64,000 nt of DNA from Candidatus Microgenomates bacterium (GCA_016204995.1 JACQJR010000001.1:539034-603033); one strand, 5' to 3'. Positions 1,332 to 60,090 are shown, counted from the stretch's first letter. The notes: generated by a model from the sequence alone, not told the origin. Translations and numbers: made by a program.

Positions 1332-1356
1332 ATGACCAGATAACCAGGATACTCGG

Positions 1357-1428
1357 AAAACTCGGAGAACCAGAATATCAGAGAAATCTGATGCTCTGAT
1401 TATCTGATATTCTGGTTCTCCGAGTTTT
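1357..1428. repeat. perfect inverted repeat, 25-bp arms (aaaactcggagaaccagaatatcag / ctgatattctggttctccgagtttt) with 22-nt loop; member of the 'cagaa/ttctg' repeat family
   Basis: read directly; sits between the LOG gene and transketolase N-half; likely transcription terminator/attenuator hairpin; related copies at 27996-28090 and inside a CDS at 37311-37430. Confidence 0.8.
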
Positions 1429-1452
1429 CTGATTTTTCTGATTCTCTGAAAT

Positions 1453-3106: not shown

Positions 3107-3503
3107 AGTAGTTCTTGATACCAATATTTTAATTTCCGCCATTGGCTTCGGAGGCAAACCAAGAAAAATACTGCTACTAACTTTAGGTGATAATTTTCAA
3201 GGCGTAACATCCTCTATACTTCTGGCAGAGTTTCATGAAGTTATCATCAAGAAGTTTCCTGAACTGCAAAAAATATTACCAATAGTGGAACGAAAAATTA
3301 GCAAAAAGTTTCTTATAGTAAAACCCAGAAAGACATTGGATATCCTAAAGGATAAAGATGATAACAGAGTTTTGGAAGCTGCTATAGAAGGTAATTGTGC
3401 TTTCATAGTAACAGGCGATAAAGAGTTGTTGAAACTTAAAAATTATCAAGGTATAAAAGTTCTAACAGCAGAAGAATTTTTAAGTGTACGAAGATATTCT
3501 TGA
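3078..3503 (+). CDS. PIN-domain ribonuclease toxin (VapC-like)
   Basis: 141 aa; VVLDTNILISAI N-terminal PIN signature with the first acidic residue, and a later acidic TGDKELL motif; overlaps RHH gene by ~29 nt. Confidence 0.65.
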   Translation: MNLGTAVNYRVVLDTNILISAIGFGGKPRKILLLTLGDNFQGVTSSILLAEFHEVIIKKFPELQKILPIVERKISKKFLIVKPRKTLDILKDKDDNRVLEAAIEGNCAFIVTGDKELLKLKNYQGIKVLTAEEFLSVRRYS

Positions 3504-3881: not shown

Positions 3882-4190
3882 TTGGAGGTGTTAAGTGATA
3901 ATGAAAATAAAATCGAATTAAGTAATCCAATATGGAATATAGTTATTCTTTCAGTGCTGTTTACTGAAAATCAATCAACTCTAAGTACCGCTCAAATTCA
4001 AACCAGTTTTATTTTAGATAAAATACCAGCTATTCGATTCAATACTTCGAAAGATAATCGTTTTTATCGTGCTACTATTAAAACTACAGAAAAACCTTTT
4101 ATAGAAATCCAATATTATGTAGATATTACAAATCCTCAACCAGAATTTATTTTTGACAAAATCCTCTCCACTTTTAAATTTACCCAATAG
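3882..4190 (+). CDS. hypothetical protein (C-terminal STFKFTQ)
   Basis: 102 aa; shares only its last 23 nt with ORF 2282-2815. Confidence 0.3.
   Translation: MEVLSDNENKIELSNPIWNIVILSVLFTENQSTLSTAQIQTSFILDKIPAIRFNTSKDNRFYRATIKTTEKPFIEIQYYVDITNPQPEFIFDKILSTFKFTQ
4167..4189. repeat. 23-bp direct repeat copy 2 (tccacttttaaatttacccaata)
   Basis: identical to 2792-2814. Confidence 0.7.
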
Positions 4191-4420
4191 ATCTTGAAAT
4201 GAGTCCTAGGAGTGTGTGGGCGAACTCACATTAAAAGATTATTTATATCAAAATTTCTAGATTCTTTGGCGATTAATTTTTCTTTCCCACTGATATGTCT
4301 TCTCCAGCCTTTGAAAGCTATCGCTCTTTTAAGTTTATGACTTATAGATTTATTTTTATTGCTTAAGACGCTCATCAAAAGTAGTATACTCAAAATATAC
4401 CAAAAGACCTAATGTTAATT

Positions 4421-9940: not shown

Positions 9941-10010
9941 AGGTTAGATGTTAGAGCTTAGAAGTTAGAAATATTTACTCTCTAATCTCTAATTTCTAAA
10001 ATCTAATATC
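9941..10010. repeat. inverted simple-repeat element (ttagatgttagagcttagaagttagaaat ... ctctaatctctaatttctaaaatctaa)
   Basis: read directly; downstream of dehydrogenase gene; terminator-like. Confidence 0.65.
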
Positions 10011-10020
10011 AAAAAAACTT

Positions 10021-22658: not shown

Positions 22659-22661
22659 TAG

Positions 22662-22705
22662 AGCTTAGATTTTAGAGATTAGAACTTAGAAATTAGTTAA
22701 GGAAT
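22662..22705. repeat. 'tagaa' simple-repeat spacer (gagcttagattttagagattagaacttagaaattag)
   Basis: read directly downstream of nrdJ. Confidence 0.6.
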
Positions 22706-22755
22706 TTTTAGCCTGCCCTATTCCTGAACATCTAAAATCTATTATCTAACTTCAA

Positions 22756-24059: not shown

Positions 24060-24356
24060 ATGGAAATTAAGACCATTCCGATGGTGGAGCATTTGCCCAA
24101 TGGCAGTCAGCCGTATCCGAAACTAGATGGCATGCCGGTAGGGTCGGTGGGACACGTAGGTGAACACGCCGAACACGAACCGATTGTCAGTGGCGGTCAG
24201 ATAGTAGCGGCACCCCCAGGACATGGTGTCCAGGTTAAGACTATCCCTTCAGCAGAAGAGGTGGAAAAGAGGATGAAAGAAAAGGCCGAGGAAGGTGGCA
24301 GATGGTGGGCAGTTTTTGGAAAGAGAGAAGGATTAAAGAAAGGCAATAGGGTTTAG
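24060..24356 (+). CDS. hypothetical protein
   Basis: 98-aa ORF, Gly/His-rich, no recognisable motif. Confidence 0.25.
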   Translation: MEIKTIPMVEHLPNGSQPYPKLDGMPVGSVGHVGEHAEHEPIVSGGQIVAAPPGHGVQVKTIPSAEEVEKRMKEKAEEGGRWWAVFGKREGLKKGNRV

Positions 24357-24420
24357 GCAATAGGCACTAGAAAGGAAACTTCCTACTAATGCCTAGTTAC
24401 TATTGCCTAGTGCCTAATTA
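24347..24420. repeat. 'aggcactag/ctagtgcct' inverted-repeat element
   Basis: ggcaataggcactagaaagg...ctactaatgcctagttactattgcctagtgcctaatt; sister copy at 59022-59125. Confidence 0.65.
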
Positions 24421-27995: not shown

Positions 27996-28090
27996 CAGAT
28001 AATCAGTGATCAGAAAACTCAGAAAGCCAGAAAATCTGAATGTCTGAATTTCTGATACTCCGGTATTCCGAGTTTTCCGGTTATCTGAAT
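27996..28090. repeat. imperfect inverted-repeat element of the 'cagaa/ttctg' family
   Basis: cagataatcagtgatcagaaaactcagaaagccagaaaatctgaa...ccgagttttccggttatctgaat; terminal cagataa/ttatctg inverted. Confidence 0.7.
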
Positions 28091-28092
28091 TT

Positions 28093-28117
28093 GCGCCCGT
28101 AGCTCAGTGGTAGAGCG
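28093..28117 (+). other. tRNA 5'-half-like fragment (acceptor stem plus D-arm: gcgcccg ta gctc agtggta gagc g), no 3' half
   Basis: read directly; no matching cgggcgc 3' strand within 300 nt. Confidence 0.4.
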
Positions 28118-28136
28118 TCTATCTTATATCAATTTT

Positions 28137-28212
28137 GGGTGCGTAGCTCAGCGGTTAGAGCGCCACTCTTATAAAGTGGATGTCCTTGGTTCAAATCCAA
28201 GCGCACCCACCA
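28137..28212 (+). tRNA. tRNA with anticodon UAU (reads AUA; tRNA-Ile2-like), CCA encoded
   Basis: manual fold: acceptor gggtgcg/cgcaccc, D-arm gctc-agcggtta-gagc, anticodon stem ccact/agtgg with loop cttataa, T-arm cttgg-ttcaaat-ccaag, discriminator A, cca. Confidence 0.65.
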
Positions 28213-28278: not shown

Positions 28279-29127
28279 ATGTCAGAGATTGGTTTTATCG
28301 GTTATGGCATCGTCGGTCAAGCCACAGGCAAGGGGTTGGCTCGCGGCGGCCACACTATTTATTCTTTTGATAAATACCGCGCTCATTCTCATTCTTTGGA
28401 AGAGGTAATAGATAAAAGTGAGTTTATTTTTATCTGCGTGCCCACCCCCATGTATCACGACCACTCGGGGATTGATTCTTCTATCGTAGATGCAGTAGTG
28501 GATGCCGTTGCTCCCCAGGTGGCCGGTACCAAGAAAGTTTTGATTATTAAGTCTACGGTTTTACCAGGTACTACGGCTCGTTATGCCAAAATTTATCCCA
28601 AAACTAATTTTGCCATGGTGCCGGAGTTTTTAACCGAGGCCAAACCGGAGTGGGATTTTCTCCATCCCTATCGGACGATTATCGGAGCCTTAGATAAAAA
28701 GATAGCTAATCGTCTGAAAAAATTACACACCTCGGCTTTGCCAGCCCAAACGCCTTTTTTTATGACCGATCCGACCAGTGCGGAGCTAGCCAAATACATG
28801 AGTAATGTCATGTTAGCTAGTAAAGTAATGTTAGCCAATGAGTTTTACGCCTTGGCCAAAGTCTTAAAGTCTAATTATGACCAAGTGCAGAAAATGGTAA
28901 CAGCTGATCCTCGGATCGGCACTCATTTAAAAGTACCAGGGCCGGATGGCGATTTAGGTTTTGGCGGCAAGTGTTTCCCCAAGGATATTGTGGCCCTACT
29001 TGGTTTGGGGAGGGAATTAAAAGTTGATCTTTCAGTTATGGAGACAATCTGGCGCAAAAACTTAAAAATTCGCAAAAATCACGATTGGAAAGAGATTAAA
29101 GGAGCAGTGACTAAGAAATTGACCTAA
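28279..29127 (+). CDS. UDP-glucose/GDP-mannose dehydrogenase-family protein (short form)
   Basis: N-terminal GFIGYGIVGQ Rossmann motif; catalytic GGKCFPKD; ORF-track start 28180 overlaps the tRNA, so the Met at 28279 with an upstream aaagga SD is used. Confidence 0.65.
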   Translation: MSEIGFIGYGIVGQATGKGLARGGHTIYSFDKYRAHSHSLEEVIDKSEFIFICVPTPMYHDHSGIDSSIVDAVVDAVAPQVAGTKKVLIIKSTVLPGTTARYAKIYPKTNFAMVPEFLTEAKPEWDFLHPYRTIIGALDKKIANRLKKLHTSALPAQTPFFMTDPTSAELAKYMSNVMLASKVMLANEFYALAKVLKSNYDQVQKMVTADPRIGTHLKVPGPDGDLGFGGKCFPKDIVALLGLGRELKVDLSVMETIWRKNLKIRKNHDWKEIKGAVTKKLT

Positions 29128-29200
29128 TTATTCTAATTAACCTAATTGACCTAAAATTTTAGAAATTAGAGCAATTAGAAATTAGAAATTTCTCTCTTAG
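29128..29200. repeat. 'tagaa' simple-repeat spacer (cctaattattctaattaacctaattgacctaaaattttagaaattagagcaattagaaattagaaatttc)
   Basis: read directly between dehydrogenase and recombinase genes. Confidence 0.6.
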
Positions 29201-36894: not shown

Positions 36895-37971
36895 GTGTCT
36901 TCGCCGTACGCATGCTACAATTACTTCGTGAGTGATAAAAAACGACTGGTCTTAATTGATGGCAATGCCATTCTTCATCGGGCCTACCATGCTTTGCCGC
37001 CTTTAACTTCTCGGTCCGGCCAATTGGTGAATGCCGTCTATGGTTTTTGTGCGATGCTATTTAAAGTGGTAAATGACCTGCAGCCTGATTTTTTGGCTGT
37101 CACTTTTGATACACCTAAACCGACTTTTCGCCATGCCGCTTATGTTGGTTATCAAGCTCACCGGCCGCGGATGGAATCTGACCTATCAGATCAAATTGAA
37201 CTGGTGCATGAAGTAGTGCGGGCGGCTGATATTCCGATTTATGAAGAGCCGGGTTATGAGGCAGATGATGTAATTGGGACGCTTGCCATGCAAGCTGTTT
37301 CGGAGAATCAGGCTACTCAGAAAACTCAGAAAACTCAGAAAACCAGAAAGCCAGAAAGCCAGAAAGCCAGAATTTCTGATATTCAGAATCTCCGGTCCTC
37401 TGAGTCTTCCGAGTTTTCTGGTCCTCTGGAAGTAATCATAGTTTCCGGTGATCGGGATTTACTGCAATTAGTCAATGACCGTGTCAAGGTTTATATGCCG
37501 ATTAAAGGCGTTACCGAAGCTAAGTTATTTGGGACTGCCGAAGTAGAAGAAAGAATGGGGGTTAAACCCTCACAAATTGTGGACTTAAAAGCTTTGATGG
37601 GCGATGCTTCTGATAATTATCCTGGCATTCCTGGCATTGGCCCTAAAACTGCTGCTATCTTAATTGGCAAATTTGGCACCTTAGAAAATATTTTTAGCCA
37701 GCTTGATAAAATTGATGATAAGACCGTGGCAAAACTGGCGGCGGGACATGAGAGTGGAGTGCTGTCTAAAAAATTAGCCCGAATTGAAATTAATGCTCCC
37801 GTCACTTTAGATTTAGAAAAAGTCCGGTTGACTCCCCTAGTTGGTAATAAAAACTTAATTGAGAAACTAGCAGAATTTGGTTTTAAAAGTTTAACGGCCC
37901 GGGCCCGGGGGATAGTTAAGAAAGAAGACGATCAATCCCGATTAAATCGGGACCAGTTGAAGTTGATATAA
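36895..37971 (+). CDS. 5'-3' exonuclease (Pol I N-terminal/FEN-like domain protein)
   Basis: LVLIDGNAILHRAYHALPP and acidic metal-binding motifs; contains a ~40-aa low-complexity insertion encoded by repeat 37311-37430. Confidence 0.8.
   Translation: MSSPYACYNYFVSDKKRLVLIDGNAILHRAYHALPPLTSRSGQLVNAVYGFCAMLFKVVNDLQPDFLAVTFDTPKPTFRHAAYVGYQAHRPRMESDLSDQIELVHEVVRAADIPIYEEPGYEADDVIGTLAMQAVSENQATQKTQKTQKTRKPESQKARISDIQNLRSSESSEFSGPLEVIIVSGDRDLLQLVNDRVKVYMPIKGVTEAKLFGTAEVEERMGVKPSQIVDLKALMGDASDNYPGIPGIGPKTAAILIGKFGTLENIFSQLDKIDDKTVAKLAAGHESGVLSKKLARIEINAPVTLDLEKVRLTPLVGNKNLIEKLAEFGFKSLTARARGIVKKEDDQSRLNRDQLKLI
37311..37430. repeat. ~120-bp 'cagaa/ttctg'-family repeat element embedded in-frame in the exonuclease CDS
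   Basis: ctcagaaaa x3, ccagaaag x3, then tctgatattcagaatctccggtcctctgagtcttccgagttttctgg; encodes QATQKTQKTQKTRKPESQKARISDIQNLRSSESSEFSGPLE. Confidence 0.75.
37936..37952. repeat. palindrome tcccgattaaatcggga (CCGATTNAATCGG family) inside the exonuclease 3' end
   Basis: read directly; encodes SRLNRD. Confidence 0.75.
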
Positions 37972-39148: not shown

Positions 39149-39193
39149 TGCTAGCCGTAGCTATCTTTAGTCTTTTTGTTATACTACGTTAGT

Positions 39194-40147
39194 ATGCCGG
39201 AGCTTCCAGAAGTAGAAACTATCCGCGGCGGACTTGAGAAGAAAATTGTTGGGTTGACGATTAAAAAGGTTGATATTTGTGCTCCTAAAAGCTTCATCGG
39301 CAAAGCGCAGGAAGTCCAAGGCAAGAAAGTAATTAAGGTATGGCGCAGAGCCAAAATGTTGGGAATAGATCTAACGACGGGTCCTGCCGGGGGCTCGTCC
39401 CGCCCGATGTCCTCGCTGAACGCTGCGGGCACTCGTCGGGACTCCCTCCGCCCCCGTCACCCGTCGCTTGCACTTTTGTTTCATCTGAAAATGACCGGGC
39501 AGCTGGTTTTGGATGATAGAAAGTGGAAAGTGGAAGGTGGAAGGATGGTTGGGGGACACCCCACTCCTGATATGCGGGATGCAATGCCTAATTCTCACAC
39601 GAGGGTAGTTTTTTCTTTTAGTGATGGATCCCGTCTTTATTTTAATGACCAAAGGCGTTTTGGGTGGGTGAAAGTAGTTCAGAGTTCGGAGTTAGGAGTT
39701 CAGGGTTTGTTTGAGAAATTAGGGCCGGAGCCGTTAGAAAAAGAATTTACTTGGCAGATTCTCAAGCAGAATTTATTAAAACATAAATCCACCCCGATTA
39801 AATCGGGGTTAATGGATCAACAAGTGGTGTCCGGAGTGGGGAATATTTACGCTAATGAAGCGTGTTTTAATGCTAGGATAGATCCTAGAGCTAGGAGCTT
39901 AGAGCTTAGTAACGCACAGTTTAAAAAATTGCATCAAGGTGTTGTTAAAGCCCTTCGCGACGGTATTAAACATGGTGGTTCAACCAGAGCTCATTTTGTA
40001 GACAGCGAAGGGCATCGGGGTTATTTTTTAGATTATGCCTATGTTTATGGCCGGGACGAGCATCCTTGTAAAATTTGCCAAACAGAAATTAAAAAAGTGA
40101 CTTTAGGCGGCCGCGGTACCTACTTTTGTCCCGCCTGCCAGCGCTAG
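39194..40147 (+). CDS. mutM: formamidopyrimidine-DNA glycosylase
   Basis: starts MPELPEVE (catalytic Pro2); C-terminal CKICQ...CPACQR zinc finger; carries at least three repeat-derived in-frame insertions; ORF-track start 39176. Confidence 0.85.
   Translation: MPELPEVETIRGGLEKKIVGLTIKKVDICAPKSFIGKAQEVQGKKVIKVWRRAKMLGIDLTTGPAGGSSRPMSSLNAAGTRRDSLRPRHPSLALLFHLKMTGQLVLDDRKWKVEGGRMVGGHPTPDMRDAMPNSHTRVVFSFSDGSRLYFNDQRRFGWVKVVQSSELGVQGLFEKLGPEPLEKEFTWQILKQNLLKHKSTPIKSGLMDQQVVSGVGNIYANEACFNARIDPRARSLELSNAQFKKLHQGVVKALRDGIKHGGSTRAHFVDSEGHRGYFLDYAYVYGRDEHPCKICQTEIKKVTLGGRGTYFCPACQR
39376..39465. repeat. ~90-bp GC-rich palindromic element in-frame inside fpg (termini gacgggt / acccgtc; internal gtcccg / cgggac)
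   Basis: base composition contrasts sharply with the flanking gene; encodes TTGPAGGSSRPMSSLNAAGTRRDSLRPRHPSLA; 90 bp is a multiple of 3. Confidence 0.6.
39791..39809. repeat. palindrome accccgattaaatcggggt (CCGATTNAATCGG family) inside fpg
   Basis: read directly; encodes TPIKSG. Confidence 0.8.
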
Positions 40148-42948: not shown

Positions 42949-43087
42949 GAAGTGCGCTGCTCGGTCGCCGTGTTCACATCGCATGCGAGCGTTAGCGTCT
43001 GAATGCTAGCGCGTTCAGATACGGCCTGCGGCCTAGTGAATGCTCGTTCAACGGCTTCCTTGCACGCTTAAATGTGATAGAATTAAG

Positions 43088-44875
43088 ATGGTTATGACTT
43101 TTCAGAAACTGGCTCTTTATTTAGAAAAGTTAGAACAAACTTCTTCCCGGCTGGCCTTAATTGATATCTTAGTTGATCTCTTCAAAGAAGTTAATTCACC
43201 CCAAGAAATAGCTTTAATTTCCTATTTGGCCCAAGGCCGAGTGGCCCCATTTTATGAACCGGTAGAAATTGGTATGAGTGAGAAACTAGTCGCCCAGGCG
43301 ATTGCCCGTGCTTATGAGATAGAGCGCGAAAAGGTGTTAGAGGAATACGGTAGAATAGGTGATTTGGGAAAAGTGGCAGAGAAACTCAAATCTCAAAACT
43401 CAAATCTCAAAACCATAACTCATAACAAAGCAAAGCTTGGCCCTTCGGGCGCAAAACTTTCAGTACAAGAAGTATTTAATTCTTTATTAGAAATTGCACG
43501 TGCTTCGGGTGCAGGCACGGTGGAAAAAAGAGTTTCAATTTTGTCTGATTTATTAAAAAAGATAGATGGTGTTTCAGCTAAACATTTAGTACGAATTCCC
43601 TTAGGGACTTCGCGTTTGGGAGTAGGCGACCCCACTATTTTAGACGCTTTTGCCAAAGCCAAACTGGGAGATAAAAGCAAACGGAAATTATTGGAGGGAG
43701 CTTATAATCGGGTTTCTGATTTAGGCTTAATTGGCCAAACTTTGTGGAAGGGGGGACTATCGGCAGTAGAAAGATTAAAAGTAACAGTCGGTCGGCCAAT
43801 TCGTTCCGAGCTGGCCGAGCGTTTGCCCACGGCCGAGAAAATCGTAGAAAAACTCGGTACAGTTAATGCCCAGCGCAAAATCGATGGATTTAGGGTACAA
43901 ATTCACAAAGACGGAGACAAGGTTAGGCTTTTTTCCCGCAATTTAGAAGAGACAACCCCCATGTTTCCGGAAATTGTCCAAGCAGCTAAAGTCCAAATTA
44001 AAGCCAGGACTGCTATTTTAGATGCTGAAGCTATTGGCTATAACCCGAGTTCGGGTGAATTTTTGCCTTTTCAGGAAACTACCCAGCGCCGCCGTAAATA
44101 TCATATCGCGGAAATGGCCCAAAAAATTCCTCTAAAAGCTTTTATTTTTGACATCCTTTATAAAAATGGCCAGTCGTTAATTGATCAGCCCTTAACTGAC
44201 AGACTTCAGGTTTTAAAGAAGACGGTTTCGGCGGGCAATACCCTGGTAATAGAAGAGGGGGTAGAGGTGCGCGATAAAGATAAATTGCAGCTACTCATGG
44301 ATCAGTCCATTACCGATGGCTTAGAAGGACTCGTGGTCAAGCGGCCTGATTCCAAATACGAAGCCGGTGCCCGTAATTTCAATTGGGTCAAATTAAAACG
44401 GCATTCTGACGGCGAGCTGAAAGATACCATTGATTGTGTCATTCTAGGCTACATTTTCGGCCGGGGCAAAAGAGCTGAATTTGGGGCAGGGGCACTTTTA
44501 GTAGGGCTTTATGATAATAAAAAAGATGAATTCGTGACAGTGTCTAAAATTGGGACCGGTTTGACAGATGAAGAATGGCGGGAAATCCACCGGCGGGCGG
44601 ATAGGATTAAAGTAGACCAAAAGCCAGCCCGAGTCAGGGCGATTTTGACTCCTTCGGTGTGGATCAAGCCCCAGATTGTCATTGAGGTGTTGGCTGATGA
44701 GATTACTCGTTCTCCCATTCATACTGCCGGTAAAAATGATTCAGAGCCAGGCTATGCTTTGCGTTTTCCCAGGTTAGTAAAGTTCCGCGAAGCCGATAAA
44801 AAGGCCGAGGACGCCACGACTGTCAAAGAATTAATTGAGATGTACAAGCAGCAAGGCCACGTTCATGTAAGCTGA
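43088..44875 (+). CDS. lig: ATP-dependent DNA ligase (Lig I/archaeal-eukaryal type)
   Basis: adenylation motif KIDGFR (KxDG), motifs III-VI, OB domain; ORF-track start 43040; contains an in-frame ctcaaatctcaaaactcaaatctcaaaa repeat. Confidence 0.8.
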   Translation: MVMTFQKLALYLEKLEQTSSRLALIDILVDLFKEVNSPQEIALISYLAQGRVAPFYEPVEIGMSEKLVAQAIARAYEIEREKVLEEYGRIGDLGKVAEKLKSQNSNLKTITHNKAKLGPSGAKLSVQEVFNSLLEIARASGAGTVEKRVSILSDLLKKIDGVSAKHLVRIPLGTSRLGVGDPTILDAFAKAKLGDKSKRKLLEGAYNRVSDLGLIGQTLWKGGLSAVERLKVTVGRPIRSELAERLPTAEKIVEKLGTVNAQRKIDGFRVQIHKDGDKVRLFSRNLEETTPMFPEIVQAAKVQIKARTAILDAEAIGYNPSSGEFLPFQETTQRRRKYHIAEMAQKIPLKAFIFDILYKNGQSLIDQPLTDRLQVLKKTVSAGNTLVIEEGVEVRDKDKLQLLMDQSITDGLEGLVVKRPDSKYEAGARNFNWVKLKRHSDGELKDTIDCVILGYIFGRGKRAEFGAGALLVGLYDNKKDEFVTVSKIGTGLTDEEWREIHRRADRIKVDQKPARVRAILTPSVWIKPQIVIEVLADEITRSPIHTAGKNDSEPGYALRFPRLVKFREADKKAEDATTVKELIEMYKQQGHVHVS

Positions 44876-47520: not shown

Positions 47521-48140
47521 TTCAAAATCGTTATCAAGCCGGTCAATTATTAGGAGAGGAATTAAAGAAGAGAGGTTATGGTAAAAATTGTATTATCTTG
47601 GCTATTCCGAGAGGTGGAGTGGTGACAGGTAAAGCAGTGGCAGACATTTTAGGAGCTAAATTAGATGTGGTGGTGGTACGTAAACTGGGAGCGCCGCCGC
47701 AGCCCGAGCTAGCAGTTGGTGCTGTTGGACCTGGAGGAATTAGGGTTATTAATCAAAATTTGATTAATAGTTTTGGATTAGATAGCCAGGATTTAGAAAA
47801 TATGGTTAGTATTTTAGAGGAGGAAATTAAAGAGAGAGAAGAAAAATTTAGAAGCGGAAAACGACATTTGATCCTAAAAAATAAAATAGTAATTTTAGTG
47901 GATGACGGAATTGCCACTGGGGCCACCATAGAAGCAGCTCTGGAATATATTAAATCAAAAAAGCCTTTACAGGTGGTTTTGGCTGCGCCGGTGGCTTCAG
48001 CCGATACTTTGATGCACTTAGAGATGTTAGTAGATAGTTTAGTAGTATTAGAAAAGCCGGTAGAATTCGGATCAATGGGCCAGTTTTATGGTGAATTTCC
48101 CCAAGTGACAGACGAAGAAGTGGTACAATTATTGTTATGA
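47517..48140 (+). CDS. phosphoribosyltransferase-family protein
   Basis: ILVDDGIATGATIEAAL PRPP-binding motif; start at the Met at 47517. Confidence 0.65.
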   Translation: MFQNRYQAGQLLGEELKKRGYGKNCIILAIPRGGVVTGKAVADILGAKLDVVVVRKLGAPPQPELAVGAVGPGGIRVINQNLINSFGLDSQDLENMVSILEEEIKEREEKFRSGKRHLILKNKIVILVDDGIATGATIEAALEYIKSKKPLQVVLAAPVASADTLMHLEMLVDSLVVLEKPVEFGSMGQFYGEFPQVTDEEVVQLLL

Positions 48141-48613
48141 AATTAATTATCGGTTTAGGTAATCCAGGAGCAGAATATGCCAATACCCGACATAATGTAG
48201 GATATATGGTAGTTGATCAATTAAAAGTGCAAAGTGCAAAGTTCAAAGATATGACATTTGCTAAAACTAATGTTTTTATGAATGAGTCAGGTCAAGCAGT
48301 AAAAAGGATAATGCCAAATGCCAAATGCCAAATGCCAAATTTATACATAGTTCACGATGACTTAGACATCCCGCTGGGCCAATTTAAGATCCAGTTTGGT
48401 AAAGGTCCCAAAGACCATAAAGGTATTCAATCTATTGAAGAAGCGCTCAAAACAGATCAATTTTGGCGAGTAAGGGTAGGGGTGGACAACCGTGATCCCA
48501 AATCTAGGATTCCAGGTGAAGAATATGTGCTGCAGGAATTTAATAGTCAGGAGCAGGAAGTTTTGACTGGCGTCATCTCCAAAGTTACCCAAGAGCTTGC
48601 TAAATTACCATGA
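48137..48613 (+). CDS. pth: peptidyl-tRNA hydrolase
   Basis: MKLIIGLGNPGAEYANTRHNVG with catalytic His; contains in-frame tandem repeats at 48224-48248 and 48311-48340. Confidence 0.8.
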   Translation: MKLIIGLGNPGAEYANTRHNVGYMVVDQLKVQSAKFKDMTFAKTNVFMNESGQAVKRIMPNAKCQMPNLYIVHDDLDIPLGQFKIQFGKGPKDHKGIQSIEEALKTDQFWRVRVGVDNRDPKSRIPGEEYVLQEFNSQEQEVLTGVISKVTQELAKLP

Positions 48614-59016: not shown

Positions 59017-59021
59017 AGTAA

Positions 59022-59125
59022 GGCACTAGGCAATAGGCAAAGCTTGACTCTTCGGGTTAGATACTAGGCACTAGAAATAAGAAAAAAATTAGTGCCTAAT
59101 GCCTAGTCCCTAATGCCTAATACAT
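59022..59125. repeat. 'aggcactag/ctagtgcct' repeat element, second copy, running into the trxB start codon
   Basis: gtaaggcactaggcaataggcaaagc...tactaggcactagaaataag...ttagtgcctaatgcctagtccctaatgcctaat. Confidence 0.65.
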
Positions 59126-60090
59126 ACGACATAGCAGTTATTGGTTCTGGTCCAGCTTCTCTTACGGCGGCCATTTACACCAGTCGCGGCGCCGCTAAAA
59201 CCGTCATTTTGGCAGGCAGTAATTGGGGTGGTCAGTTAATGCTGACGACAGAAGTGGAAAATTTCCCCGGCTTTGATCATATTTTAGGGCCGGAGTTAAT
59301 GGCCAAAATGAAGAATCATGCTGTCAAATTCGGGTCAGAATTTATAGGAGCAGATGTAGAAGAAGTAGATTTTAGCCGGCAGCCGTTTACTCTGAAAGCT
59401 AATGGAAAGGATTATCAGACCAAGTCGGTAATTATTACCACCGGCGCCAATGCTCGTTGGTTGAATCTGCCATCCGAGCGGGAGTTTATCGGCCGCGGAG
59501 TTTCCTCTTGCGCTCCTTGCGACGCCCCCTTTTTTAAGGAAAAAAACGTCATTGTAGTGGGCGGGGGAGATAGTGCTATGGAAGAAGCGCTGGTGTTGAC
59601 TAAATATGCTGCGAGTGTCACGATTGTTCATCGCCGCAGTAACTTTCGCGCTTCCAAAATTATGCAAAGCAAGGTGCTAAATCATCCCAAAATTAAAGTA
59701 ATTTGGGATACGGAAGTTACGGAAATTTTAGGGACAGATAAGGTTAGCGGGGTCAAATTAAAAAATGTTAAAACCGGCGAAACTCGTGACATGCCGATTG
59801 ATGGAGTTTTTGTCGCCATCGGCCATGATCCCAATACCAAACTGTTTGCGGGAAAGTTAGAGCTAGATGAAAAAGGATACATCAAGATAATTTCTAATTC
59901 CAAATTTCTAATTTCTAATGAAAAAGGGGAAGAGGTGGGAAACAGATTTTCTACGATGACTTCGATAGAAGGAATTTTTGCGGCCGGAGATGTGCATGAT
60001 TTCCGCTACCGCCAAGCGATTACCGCCGCCGGCTTTGGCTGTCAGGCAGCAATGGATGCGCTGTCGTGGCTTGAGGAGGTTCGTCCATGA
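59113..60090 (+). CDS. trxB: thioredoxin-disulfide reductase
   Basis: FAD motif VIGSGPAS, redox-active CAPCD, NADPH motif VVGGGDSAMEEA; in-frame repeat at 59888-59920. Confidence 0.85.
   Translation: MPNTYDIAVIGSGPASLTAAIYTSRGAAKTVILAGSNWGGQLMLTTEVENFPGFDHILGPELMAKMKNHAVKFGSEFIGADVEEVDFSRQPFTLKANGKDYQTKSVIITTGANARWLNLPSEREFIGRGVSSCAPCDAPFFKEKNVIVVGGGDSAMEEALVLTKYAASVTIVHRRSNFRASKIMQSKVLNHPKIKVIWDTEVTEILGTDKVSGVKLKNVKTGETRDMPIDGVFVAIGHDPNTKLFAGKLELDEKGYIKIISNSKFLISNEKGEEVGNRFSTMTSIEGIFAAGDVHDFRYRQAITAAGFGCQAAMDALSWLEEVRP

Follow-up and report, generated by a model that had tools for sequence, protein, structure and literature searches.

The closest described counterparts of the element reported here, a 126-nt palindromic segment lying in frame in the gene of a 5'-3' exonuclease, a DNA-repair nuclease, of an uncultured, ultra-small Candidatus Microgenomates bacterium, are the Rickettsia palindromic elements (RPEs). 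RPEs are about 100-150 bp long, have hairpin potential and occur in many dispersed copies in small genomes, a large share of them in frame in unrelated housekeeping genes, where each family adds one conserved, fold-compatible extra peptide. To our knowledge, no transposase is known for RPEs, they have not been described as periodic unit arrays, and high-frequency in-frame palindromic inserts have been regarded largely as a peculiarity of Rickettsia. Nearly half of the 44 RPE copies of R. conorii lie within open reading frames (ORFs) (PMC10969869), and 53 of the 526 copies of R. bellii lie within protein genes (PMC1458961). MITEs, or miniature inverted-repeat transposable elements, such as Correia/NEMIS and ERIC are likewise small and non-coding, with conserved inverted termini, and sit between and sometimes within genes; those of bacteria can be co-transcribed as a hairpin (PMC10969869). 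REP, BIME and REPIN sequences form intergenic palindromes in operon spacers, REPINs being doublets with long hairpins. REPs measure 20-40 nt, are extragenic by definition and are linked to a RAYT gene. Short-unit tandem arrays also occupy operon spacers as STRR (short tandemly repeated repetitive) heptamers in heterocystous cyanobacteria and MIRU in mycobacteria; these are direct arrays, not palindromes, and we know of no report of them as frequent in-frame inserts in enzymes.

We analyzed a 64,000-nt stretch of the Microgenomates genome (GCA_016204995.1, JACQJR010000001.1:539034-603033; hereafter the window), in which an earlier sequence-only reading had noticed a palindromic repeat of ~120 bp inside the exonuclease gene together with two intergenic sister copies. 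Our results suggest that the segment represents a single copy from a family of non-coding, non-autonomous palindromes of CPR (Candidate Phyla Radiation)/Microgenomates-type bacteria, which we call the TCNGA-octamer palindrome; we put the probability of this reading at roughly 0.6. The features concerned are as follows.

36895..37971, plus strand: stand-alone 5'-3' exonuclease gene of the FEN / Pol I N-terminal type, which hosts the insert, from ORF and Pfam evidence.
37300..37429, plus strand: in-gene copy of the TCNGA-octamer palindrome, an imperfect palindrome within the exonuclease ORF.
37300-37372: left half of the in-gene copy, TCGGAGAA, TCAGGCTAC, then CTCAGAAAA three times and CCAGAAAG three times.
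37373-37429: right half of the in-gene copy, units TCTGA / TCAGA / TCCGG / TCTGA / TCCGA / TCTGG.
1337..1449, no strand assigned: intergenic sister copy with the best-preserved hairpin; 49-nt arms, 86%; 11 cores.
27996..28090, no strand assigned: imperfect intergenic sister copy; arms 28013-28040 / 28050-28077, 75%; 9 cores; fold z = -4.9.

The in-gene copy is both periodic and palindromic. In it, three ctcagaaaa units (37316-37342) are followed by three ccagaaag units (37343-37366) and then by an inverted half. Tandem Repeats Finder (TRF) assigned 37318-37372 a period of 8 (6.6 copies, 95% matches), and an inverted-repeat search paired 37318-37365 with 37373-37420, giving arms of 48 nt each that are 75% complementary across a 7-nt gap; a relaxed core detector marked 37300-37339 and 37375-37429. 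RNA folding, a check proposed with the sequence-only reading, gave -42.3 kcal/mol for the native segment and -27.7 ± 3.3 kcal/mol for shuffles (z = -4.47), and no shuffle out of 200 was as stable. When aligned to orthologues and solved structures, the insert corresponds to codons 136-177, that is, 37300-37425 (126 nt, 42 codons). The element had been placed at 37311-37430; it does lie there, and the alignment widens its bounds slightly. The frame is open across the insert, with no stops, and encodes the peptide SENQATQKTQKTQKTRKPESQKARISDIQNLRSSESSEFSGP. The TRF result, the 48-nt arms, the open frame and the Pfam matches of the host thus bear out an in-frame palindromic repeat in this gene. 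Two independent assemblies of other sequencing runs contain identical DNA spanning the element (2044 nt in SRR12113430, 1623 nt in SRR12113384), and the element is therefore not an assembly artefact.

Both intergenic sister copies are also real. The copy at 1337-1449 folds at -64.7 kcal/mol (z = -11.4) and contains a perfect Watson-Crick stem of 27 bp, 1356-1382 paired with 1403-1429, where a perfect hairpin with 25-bp arms had been reported at 1357-1428. This copy occupies the 121-nt spacer that separates a LOG/SLOG-family gene (stop at 1331) from a gene for a transketolase N-terminal subunit (ATG at 1453), as assigned by Pfam. The second copy, 27996-28090, begins 12 nt past the stop of an MFS transporter gene (27983) and ends 46 nt before a tRNA-Ile(TAT) gene. 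The three window copies measure 113 nt, about 95 nt and 126-130 nt. Just after the second hairpin, 28094-28136 resembles the 5' half of a tRNA (GCGCCCGTAGCTCAGTGGTAGAGCG...CTTATA...), and the complete tRNA-Ile with its unusual anticodon TAT follows directly 3' at 28137-28212.

Each of the three window copies consists of TCNGA cores in an array, and the unit order is the same in all. Across family members, neighboring cores are 8 nt apart in 241 cases and 9 nt apart in 69. The center base of the core is a purine (A/G) in the left half and a pyrimidine (T/C) in the right half, as in AAAAAAATTCTCT; this switch at the dyad makes the halves complementary and a long hairpin possible. Conservation is seen in the outermost two or three 9-nt units (TCNGAATAC, TCNGAAAAC / GTTTTCNGA, with ..GAGTTTTCNGA on the right side), whereas the inner 8-nt units vary from copy to copy. 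TCNGAATAC, TCNGAAAAC and their complement lie at the ends of most copies, even of copies found without these units as query. Family copies span 60-140 nt. Two loci, L133 (about 1749-1836) and L166 (about 862-932), carry TCNGA elements with a G+C-rich palindrome at the apex (GGCCAGTTGGCGGAC and CCGCCAGATGGCGGA, respectively), which could represent either a variant of the apex or a nested element; their apparent same-spacer relatives L156 and L106, with alignable flanks, have ordinary 8-mers at the apex instead.

We built a generic detector for this architecture (at least 6 TCNGR cores, spacing 8 or 9 nt, one missing core allowed). It returned exactly the three copies in the window, 0 arrays in 50 shuffles and 0 in 80 loci of other bacteria, CPR included, these loci being those of distant exonuclease relatives (at most 52% identity among the matches listed). 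In the window, only tRNAs passed Rfam thresholds and no Rfam family covered the elements; matches of the elements to eukaryotic microRNA precursor models were all sub-threshold, for example 32 bits against a threshold of 100.

To survey metagenome contigs, we used the two-arm pattern GAAAACTCRGA N{40,70} TCYGAGTTTTC, which matched 100 stretches. The periodic architecture was present in at least 55 of the 85 unique matches, the remainder being unrelated palindromes or chance matches. Because the pattern requires intact termini, the sample is biased, and it does not allow terminus conservation between orthologous copies to be judged. Several loci held 2-3 copies per contig. Together with the three copies in the window, these matches dispose of the concern that no further copies of the element might exist. 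Classified with the generic detector, 69 unique arrays were positioned as follows.

Within long ORFs: 33.
In spacers of co-directional genes, often a few nt from stop and start: 22.
In spacers of convergent genes: 4.
In spacers of divergent genes: 5.
At contig ends: 5.

Of the true family members, about 40-50% are in frame in long ORFs. Pfam confirmed a host protein for 14 of the 17 periodic-array ORFs scanned, and additionally for L155, whose decayed array had failed the periodicity filter. Confirmed hosts comprise a Mur ligase, RsmB/F, RadA (at two different sites), UvrC, UvrA, DUF2298, a FolC-like ligase, a GT1 glycosyltransferase, an amine oxidoreductase, an RNase_T exonuclease, a Pol-beta-type nucleotidyltransferase, an intein and LeuRS. 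The Pfam match spans the insert in RsmB/F, UvrC, RadA, the Mur ligase of L099, DUF2298 and the amine oxidoreductases; in RsmB/F, profile positions 2-198 are stretched to 234 residues. Matches flank the insert in UvrA, LeuRS and the GT1 glycosyltransferase. At least two reading frames are used, giving peptides of the types QKTQNTQK...SEFSEFSG and SENSENSD...SEYSEFSE. A profile of 14 insert peptides found one match at E <= 1e-3 among 5.8 billion proteins, a low yield attributable to the short, low-complexity query. We also considered phages as carriers. Viral contigs contained no true arrays, only one two-arm match without periodic units and six matches to a 23-nt terminus pattern without arrays, and phages are therefore no evident carrier.

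Copies on the same contig are 60-75% identical, with one exception within a duplicated intein. In L162, two 87%-identical TCNGA arrays (3254-3342 and 4169-4248) lie in frame in a 1942-residue ORF with matches to intein splicing domains, the first of them after a CVTGDTLLP motif. The surroundings of these arrays are also repeated (for example GGEYVLSLNEQTGAIEPRQI), so the two copies probably stem from a regional duplication.

The exonuclease allowed the insertion site to be located within a known fold. The host ORF matches Pfam 5_3_exonuc_N (1.3e-52, in two separate stretches) and 5_3_exonuc (1.1e-29), and is 100% identical to NCBI HY404_03095 (Candidatus Microgenomates bacterium, 609,565-bp contig), whose 347-aa product is 11 residues shorter than our ORF and implies a start at 36928. 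Its closest other relative is 61% identical. The insert lies between QA-V and L-EVIIV, in a 3-residue loop that joins a helix ending in ...GTLAxQA to the strand (L/I)EVIIV. No insert is present in the structures of M. smegmatis Pol I (6vde) or Taq Pol I (1taq), and the alignments to them form two blocks, query 13-138 and 179-325; the chain residues flanking the break are nearly contiguous in both structures, so that ~40 residues are extra in the query. In 39 of 118 orthologues, the stretch from EADDxxGTL to GDRDxxQL measures 13-17 residues and holds no extra sequence, while in others it reaches 74 residues. The AlphaFold2 model of the host has a mean pLDDT (predicted local distance difference test) of 86.4, with a core above 90 and blocks next to the insert at 91-98; over residues 141-180 the values are 81, 62, 52 and 78, with the preceding helix prolonged and then coil. 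The absence of the segment from the structures and from 39 of 118 orthologues, with the alignment breaking exactly there (138|179), identifies it as an insertion and not ancestral sequence. The orthologue comparison, which had been suggested as a check together with the possibility of an ancestral peptide, thus agrees with a ~40-aa insertion in a low-confidence loop.

Other Microgenomates orthologues carry extra sequence in the same loop. DNA of four of them (L081, L083, L084 and L190) contains the same TCNGA family at the same codon position and with the same termini, e.g. tcagaaaactcagaatactcaga ... tccgagttttctgg. Elsewhere the loop is occupied by different periodic palindromes: GAAGATGG units in L085, GATAT/ATATC 8-mers in L188, and GGGAAGTG units in L189, where the fold reaches -59.7 kcal/mol. 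The insert peptide of P0119 differs strongly from that of its close relative P0072. A clade of 14 members, all with inserts of 42-74 residues made of interleaved families, received 95.5% neighbor-joining bootstrap support; neither the window protein nor P0061 was placed inside it in any of the 200 replicates. Orthologues were seen to differ in having or lacking the insert only at deep divergence (50-60% identity). Judged from these sequences, the exonuclease loop is a recurrent landing or growth site, and the simplest reason for the recurrence would be that only this 3-residue loop tolerates extra sequence. A single loop used by at least four repeat families offers a natural test bed for insertion versus selection.

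The neighborhood of the exonuclease gene is partly conserved. FtsH lies upstream and a GT4 glycosyltransferase downstream; the same FtsH-exonuclease-glycosyltransferase order is found in L081 and L186, and one additional gene lies between in L085, L187 and L188. In L083 (1819-2109) and L084 (1871-2155), both with a TCNGA insert, a stand-alone GIY-YIG protein of 94-96 aa is encoded directly downstream of the exonuclease.

Taken together, the element is best read as an RPE-like selfish or near-neutral repeat that a surface loop tolerates. Copies of the family would be born and lost, their interiors would change by slippage, and insertion sites would be strongly filtered. New copies would arise at the DNA level, possibly by mobilization in trans or by copying from another copy during replication or repair, and the interior would then gain and lose units by slippage. 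In compact genomes, the landing sites that survive would be short intergenic spacers or, where the element is in frame and stop-free, surface loops of proteins; the exonuclease copy would be of the latter kind. The insert is most likely translated as a flexible loop rich in Ser, Glu, Gln, Lys and Thr.

Several results weigh against this interpretation. No target-site duplication was found: over 60 copies, the longest string common to both 15-nt flanks averages 3.63 nt, compared with 3.56 nt in mismatched pairs. Near-identical paralogues on one contig, and with them any sign of a recent copy-and-paste burst, are absent at the 60-75% identity seen. No transposase or partner gene was noticed in the loci, in which no systematic search was made. 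No copy is marked as freshly made, although the perfect 27-bp stem at 1356-1429 hints otherwise. Pairing of native arms (-29.4 kcal/mol) is no stronger than that of chimeras joining a left arm to another copy's right arm (-32.1 kcal/mol), and copy-specific co-evolution of the arms was not found; arms are interchangeable between copies, and hairpin potential therefore belongs to the family and not to the single copy. Many unrelated 7-9-nt tandem arrays exist in this genome and in other CPR loci, and local slippage contributes to the exonuclease loop in some lineages.

A broader reading, which we hold only tentatively, is that CPR bacteria have many families of palindromes built from periodic units, TCNGA being only one, and that one lineage-wide process makes and turns over all of them. 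An enzyme or repair pathway recognizing short palindromic cores could then be continually remodeling surface loops of essential proteins and filling operon spacers. Besides TCNGA, the cores GAAGATGG, GATAT/ATATC, GGGAAGTG, TAGGCA and TTAGA occur in the same exonuclease loop or in spacers of the window. If such a process operates, it would be a major and so far overlooked origin of length variation among proteins, and of low-complexity 'hypothetical' peptides, in CPR genomes.

Growth in place is an improbable alternative to the insertion of an element. In a loop that is a permissive low-complexity site, replication slippage would expand A-rich codons to tandem 8-9-nt units and an intrastrand template switch would invert them; nothing would have been inserted, and a mutational bias common to both would account for the likeness to the intergenic copies. 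The orthologue P0027 fits this account, being 48 nt longer than its 84%-identical relative P0033 owing to a one-armed GAAAATT tandem array without a hairpin. So do the near-continuous range of loop lengths from 13 to 74 residues, the in-frame 7-nt arrays in unrelated genes of the window and the lack of target-site duplication. The density of tandem arrays with a period of 7-9 and 3 or more copies is also some 5-10 times higher in CPR loci than in non-CPR bacteria, at 15.6 per 100 kb in the window, 11.6 in CPR loci, 23.0 in Microgenomates exonuclease loci and 2.4 in non-CPR loci; these are raw densities, uncorrected for base composition, from loci L001-L080, L081, L085 and L186-L188 and the window. 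However, the same unit order, with outer TCNGAAAAC / TCNGAATAC, inner 8-mers and the purine-to-pyrimidine switch, recurs in the intergenic copies and in at least 14 unrelated gene families, and independent convergence on such an architecture at dozens of unrelated sites is unlikely.

We consider it equally improbable that the element is a functional cis-element, either an array of selected sites for a protein that binds or modifies DNA or an mRNA hairpin for processing, stability or termination, with the in-gene copies serving as regulatory or adaptive linkers. A palindromic core such as TCNGA is the type of site recognized by dimeric DNA-binding proteins. Position is suggestive as well, since the intergenic copies lie mostly between co-directional genes, tight on stop and start codons. 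The element also persists: in two pairs of loci whose flanks are 67-88% identical, taken as the same site, both members carry it, with interiors altered by indels of 3-11 nt. In the exonucleases, the pattern is kept across hosts whose proteins are ~50-55% identical, and insert DNA is 56-76% identical between orthologues compared with 34-46% at third codon positions of the flanks. This last comparison loses its force because 56-76% matches the 60-75% background between any two family members, and thus cannot tell old copies from new ones.

Other observations argue further against such a function. Host genes and insertion sites are mutually unrelated, and the arms show no copy-specific covariation. 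No terminator-like or promoter-like score was obtained for any of the three copies in the window; their stems are long and A+T-rich, and the copy at 1337-1449 is followed by aaatATG, unlike the G+C-rich stem and T run of an intrinsic terminator. TCNGA, the Hpy188I site, occurs 189 times in the window where 183 ± 12 are expected, neither enriched nor depleted, and its frequency outside the arrays is also as expected; a role as a restriction-modification site was rejected. Within ORFs, the sense-strand hairpin is the weaker one, the antisense hairpin being more stable in 28 of 37 copies (p = 2e-4). With 8-nt units, the TGA of TCTGA falls in frame every third unit, and at some positions of the right arm coding copies have TCCGA or TCTGG; replacement of TCTGA units there, removing the in-frame TGA, is one explanation that these sequences offer for the weaker sense hairpin. 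The pattern suggests that inside genes the element is under coding constraint rather than RNA-structure constraint. A separate comparison of hairpin strength between genes and spacers showed no difference (p = 0.78) in a sample biased by the pattern's need for intact termini. For the intergenic copies, positive support for a function is limited to position and persistence.

That the segment is a low-complexity linker ancestral to this exonuclease subfamily, with no relation to the intergenic hairpins, is very improbable: many Microgenomates orthologues do have some extension at the loop, but the Pol I structures and 39 of 118 orthologues do not, the extensions derive from several unrelated DNA families (TCNGA, GAAGATGG, GATAT/ATATC and GGGAAGTG), and the insert DNA belongs to the same family as the intergenic copies.

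Returning to the reading of the element as an RPE-like repeat, the likeness to RPEs described here is one of behavior: the TCNGA element shares their size range, hairpin potential, dispersal, small-genome setting and frequent in-frame position, but its host is a CPR bacterium, and it is at most an analogue and not a member. It also differs from RPEs in being strictly periodic, with 8-9-nt units and a purine-to-pyrimidine switch at the dyad, and in using at least two frames instead of one conserved peptide per family. With MITEs it shares small size, a non-coding nature and conserved inverted termini, but unlike them it has no target-site duplication, has an unconserved interior (60-75% identity) and contains internal tandem units, and no related insertion sequence was noticed in the loci, in which none was systematically searched for. 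The sequence-only reading had compared the element with both RPEs and Correia-type MITEs; the RPE half is supported by in-frame copies in many host genes, whereas the Correia/MITE half is weaker because target-site duplications, near-identical paralogues and a partner transposase were not found. In contrast to REPs, TCNGA copies reach 60-140 nt, about half of them lie inside ORFs, and their arms are tandem 8-mers; no RAYT gene was seen, though no search was aimed at one. The 7-9-nt unit size of heptamer-type STRR resembles that of other arrays in the window.

We found no description of such elements in CPR/Patescibacteria in the open-access literature, in agreement with the earlier statement that no such family had been described for this kind of genome. 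What is new here is RPE-like behavior in a new phylum-level host, combined with a strictly periodic octamer architecture. The same behavior with a different architecture suggests either convergence in small genomes or an unrecognized common mechanism. It also bears on the tolerance of selfish DNA in reduced genomes and on the origin of new loops in the essential proteins UvrA, RadA, LeuRS and the 5'-nuclease. For the annotation of CPR metagenome-assembled genomes, stretches like QKTQNTQK...SEFSEFSE are repeat-derived and, if unrecognized, could distort alignments, gene calls and structure predictions.

The window contains further short-unit repeats. A second hairpin family, with ~7-nt units and a TAGGCA / TGCCTA core, occurs at 641-701, 24341-24416 and 59021-59111 (fold z -3.5 to -4.2); all its copies are intergenic and directly between co-directional genes, such as those for ribulose-phosphate epimerase and a LOG-family protein. 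A third, whose 7-nt units read TTAGA(N)(N) / (N)(N)TCTAA, lies in spacers at 9951-10013, 22659-22748 and 29117-29190. One of its copies separates a ribonucleotide reductase gene from a cobalamin adenosyltransferase gene, and a similar hairpin is present in L188 (13858-13948). One-armed 7-nt arrays lie in frame at 43382-43426, 48224-48248, 48310-48340, 59888-59919 and 39519-39542 and encode short low-complexity peptides. They include AAACTCA x6.6 in ORF 43040..44875, GAAAGTG x3.4 in ORF 39176..40147, TAATTTC x4.6 in a Pyr_redox_2 ORF, and AAAGTGC and AATGCCA arrays in a peptidyl-tRNA-hydrolase-like ORF (48137..48613).

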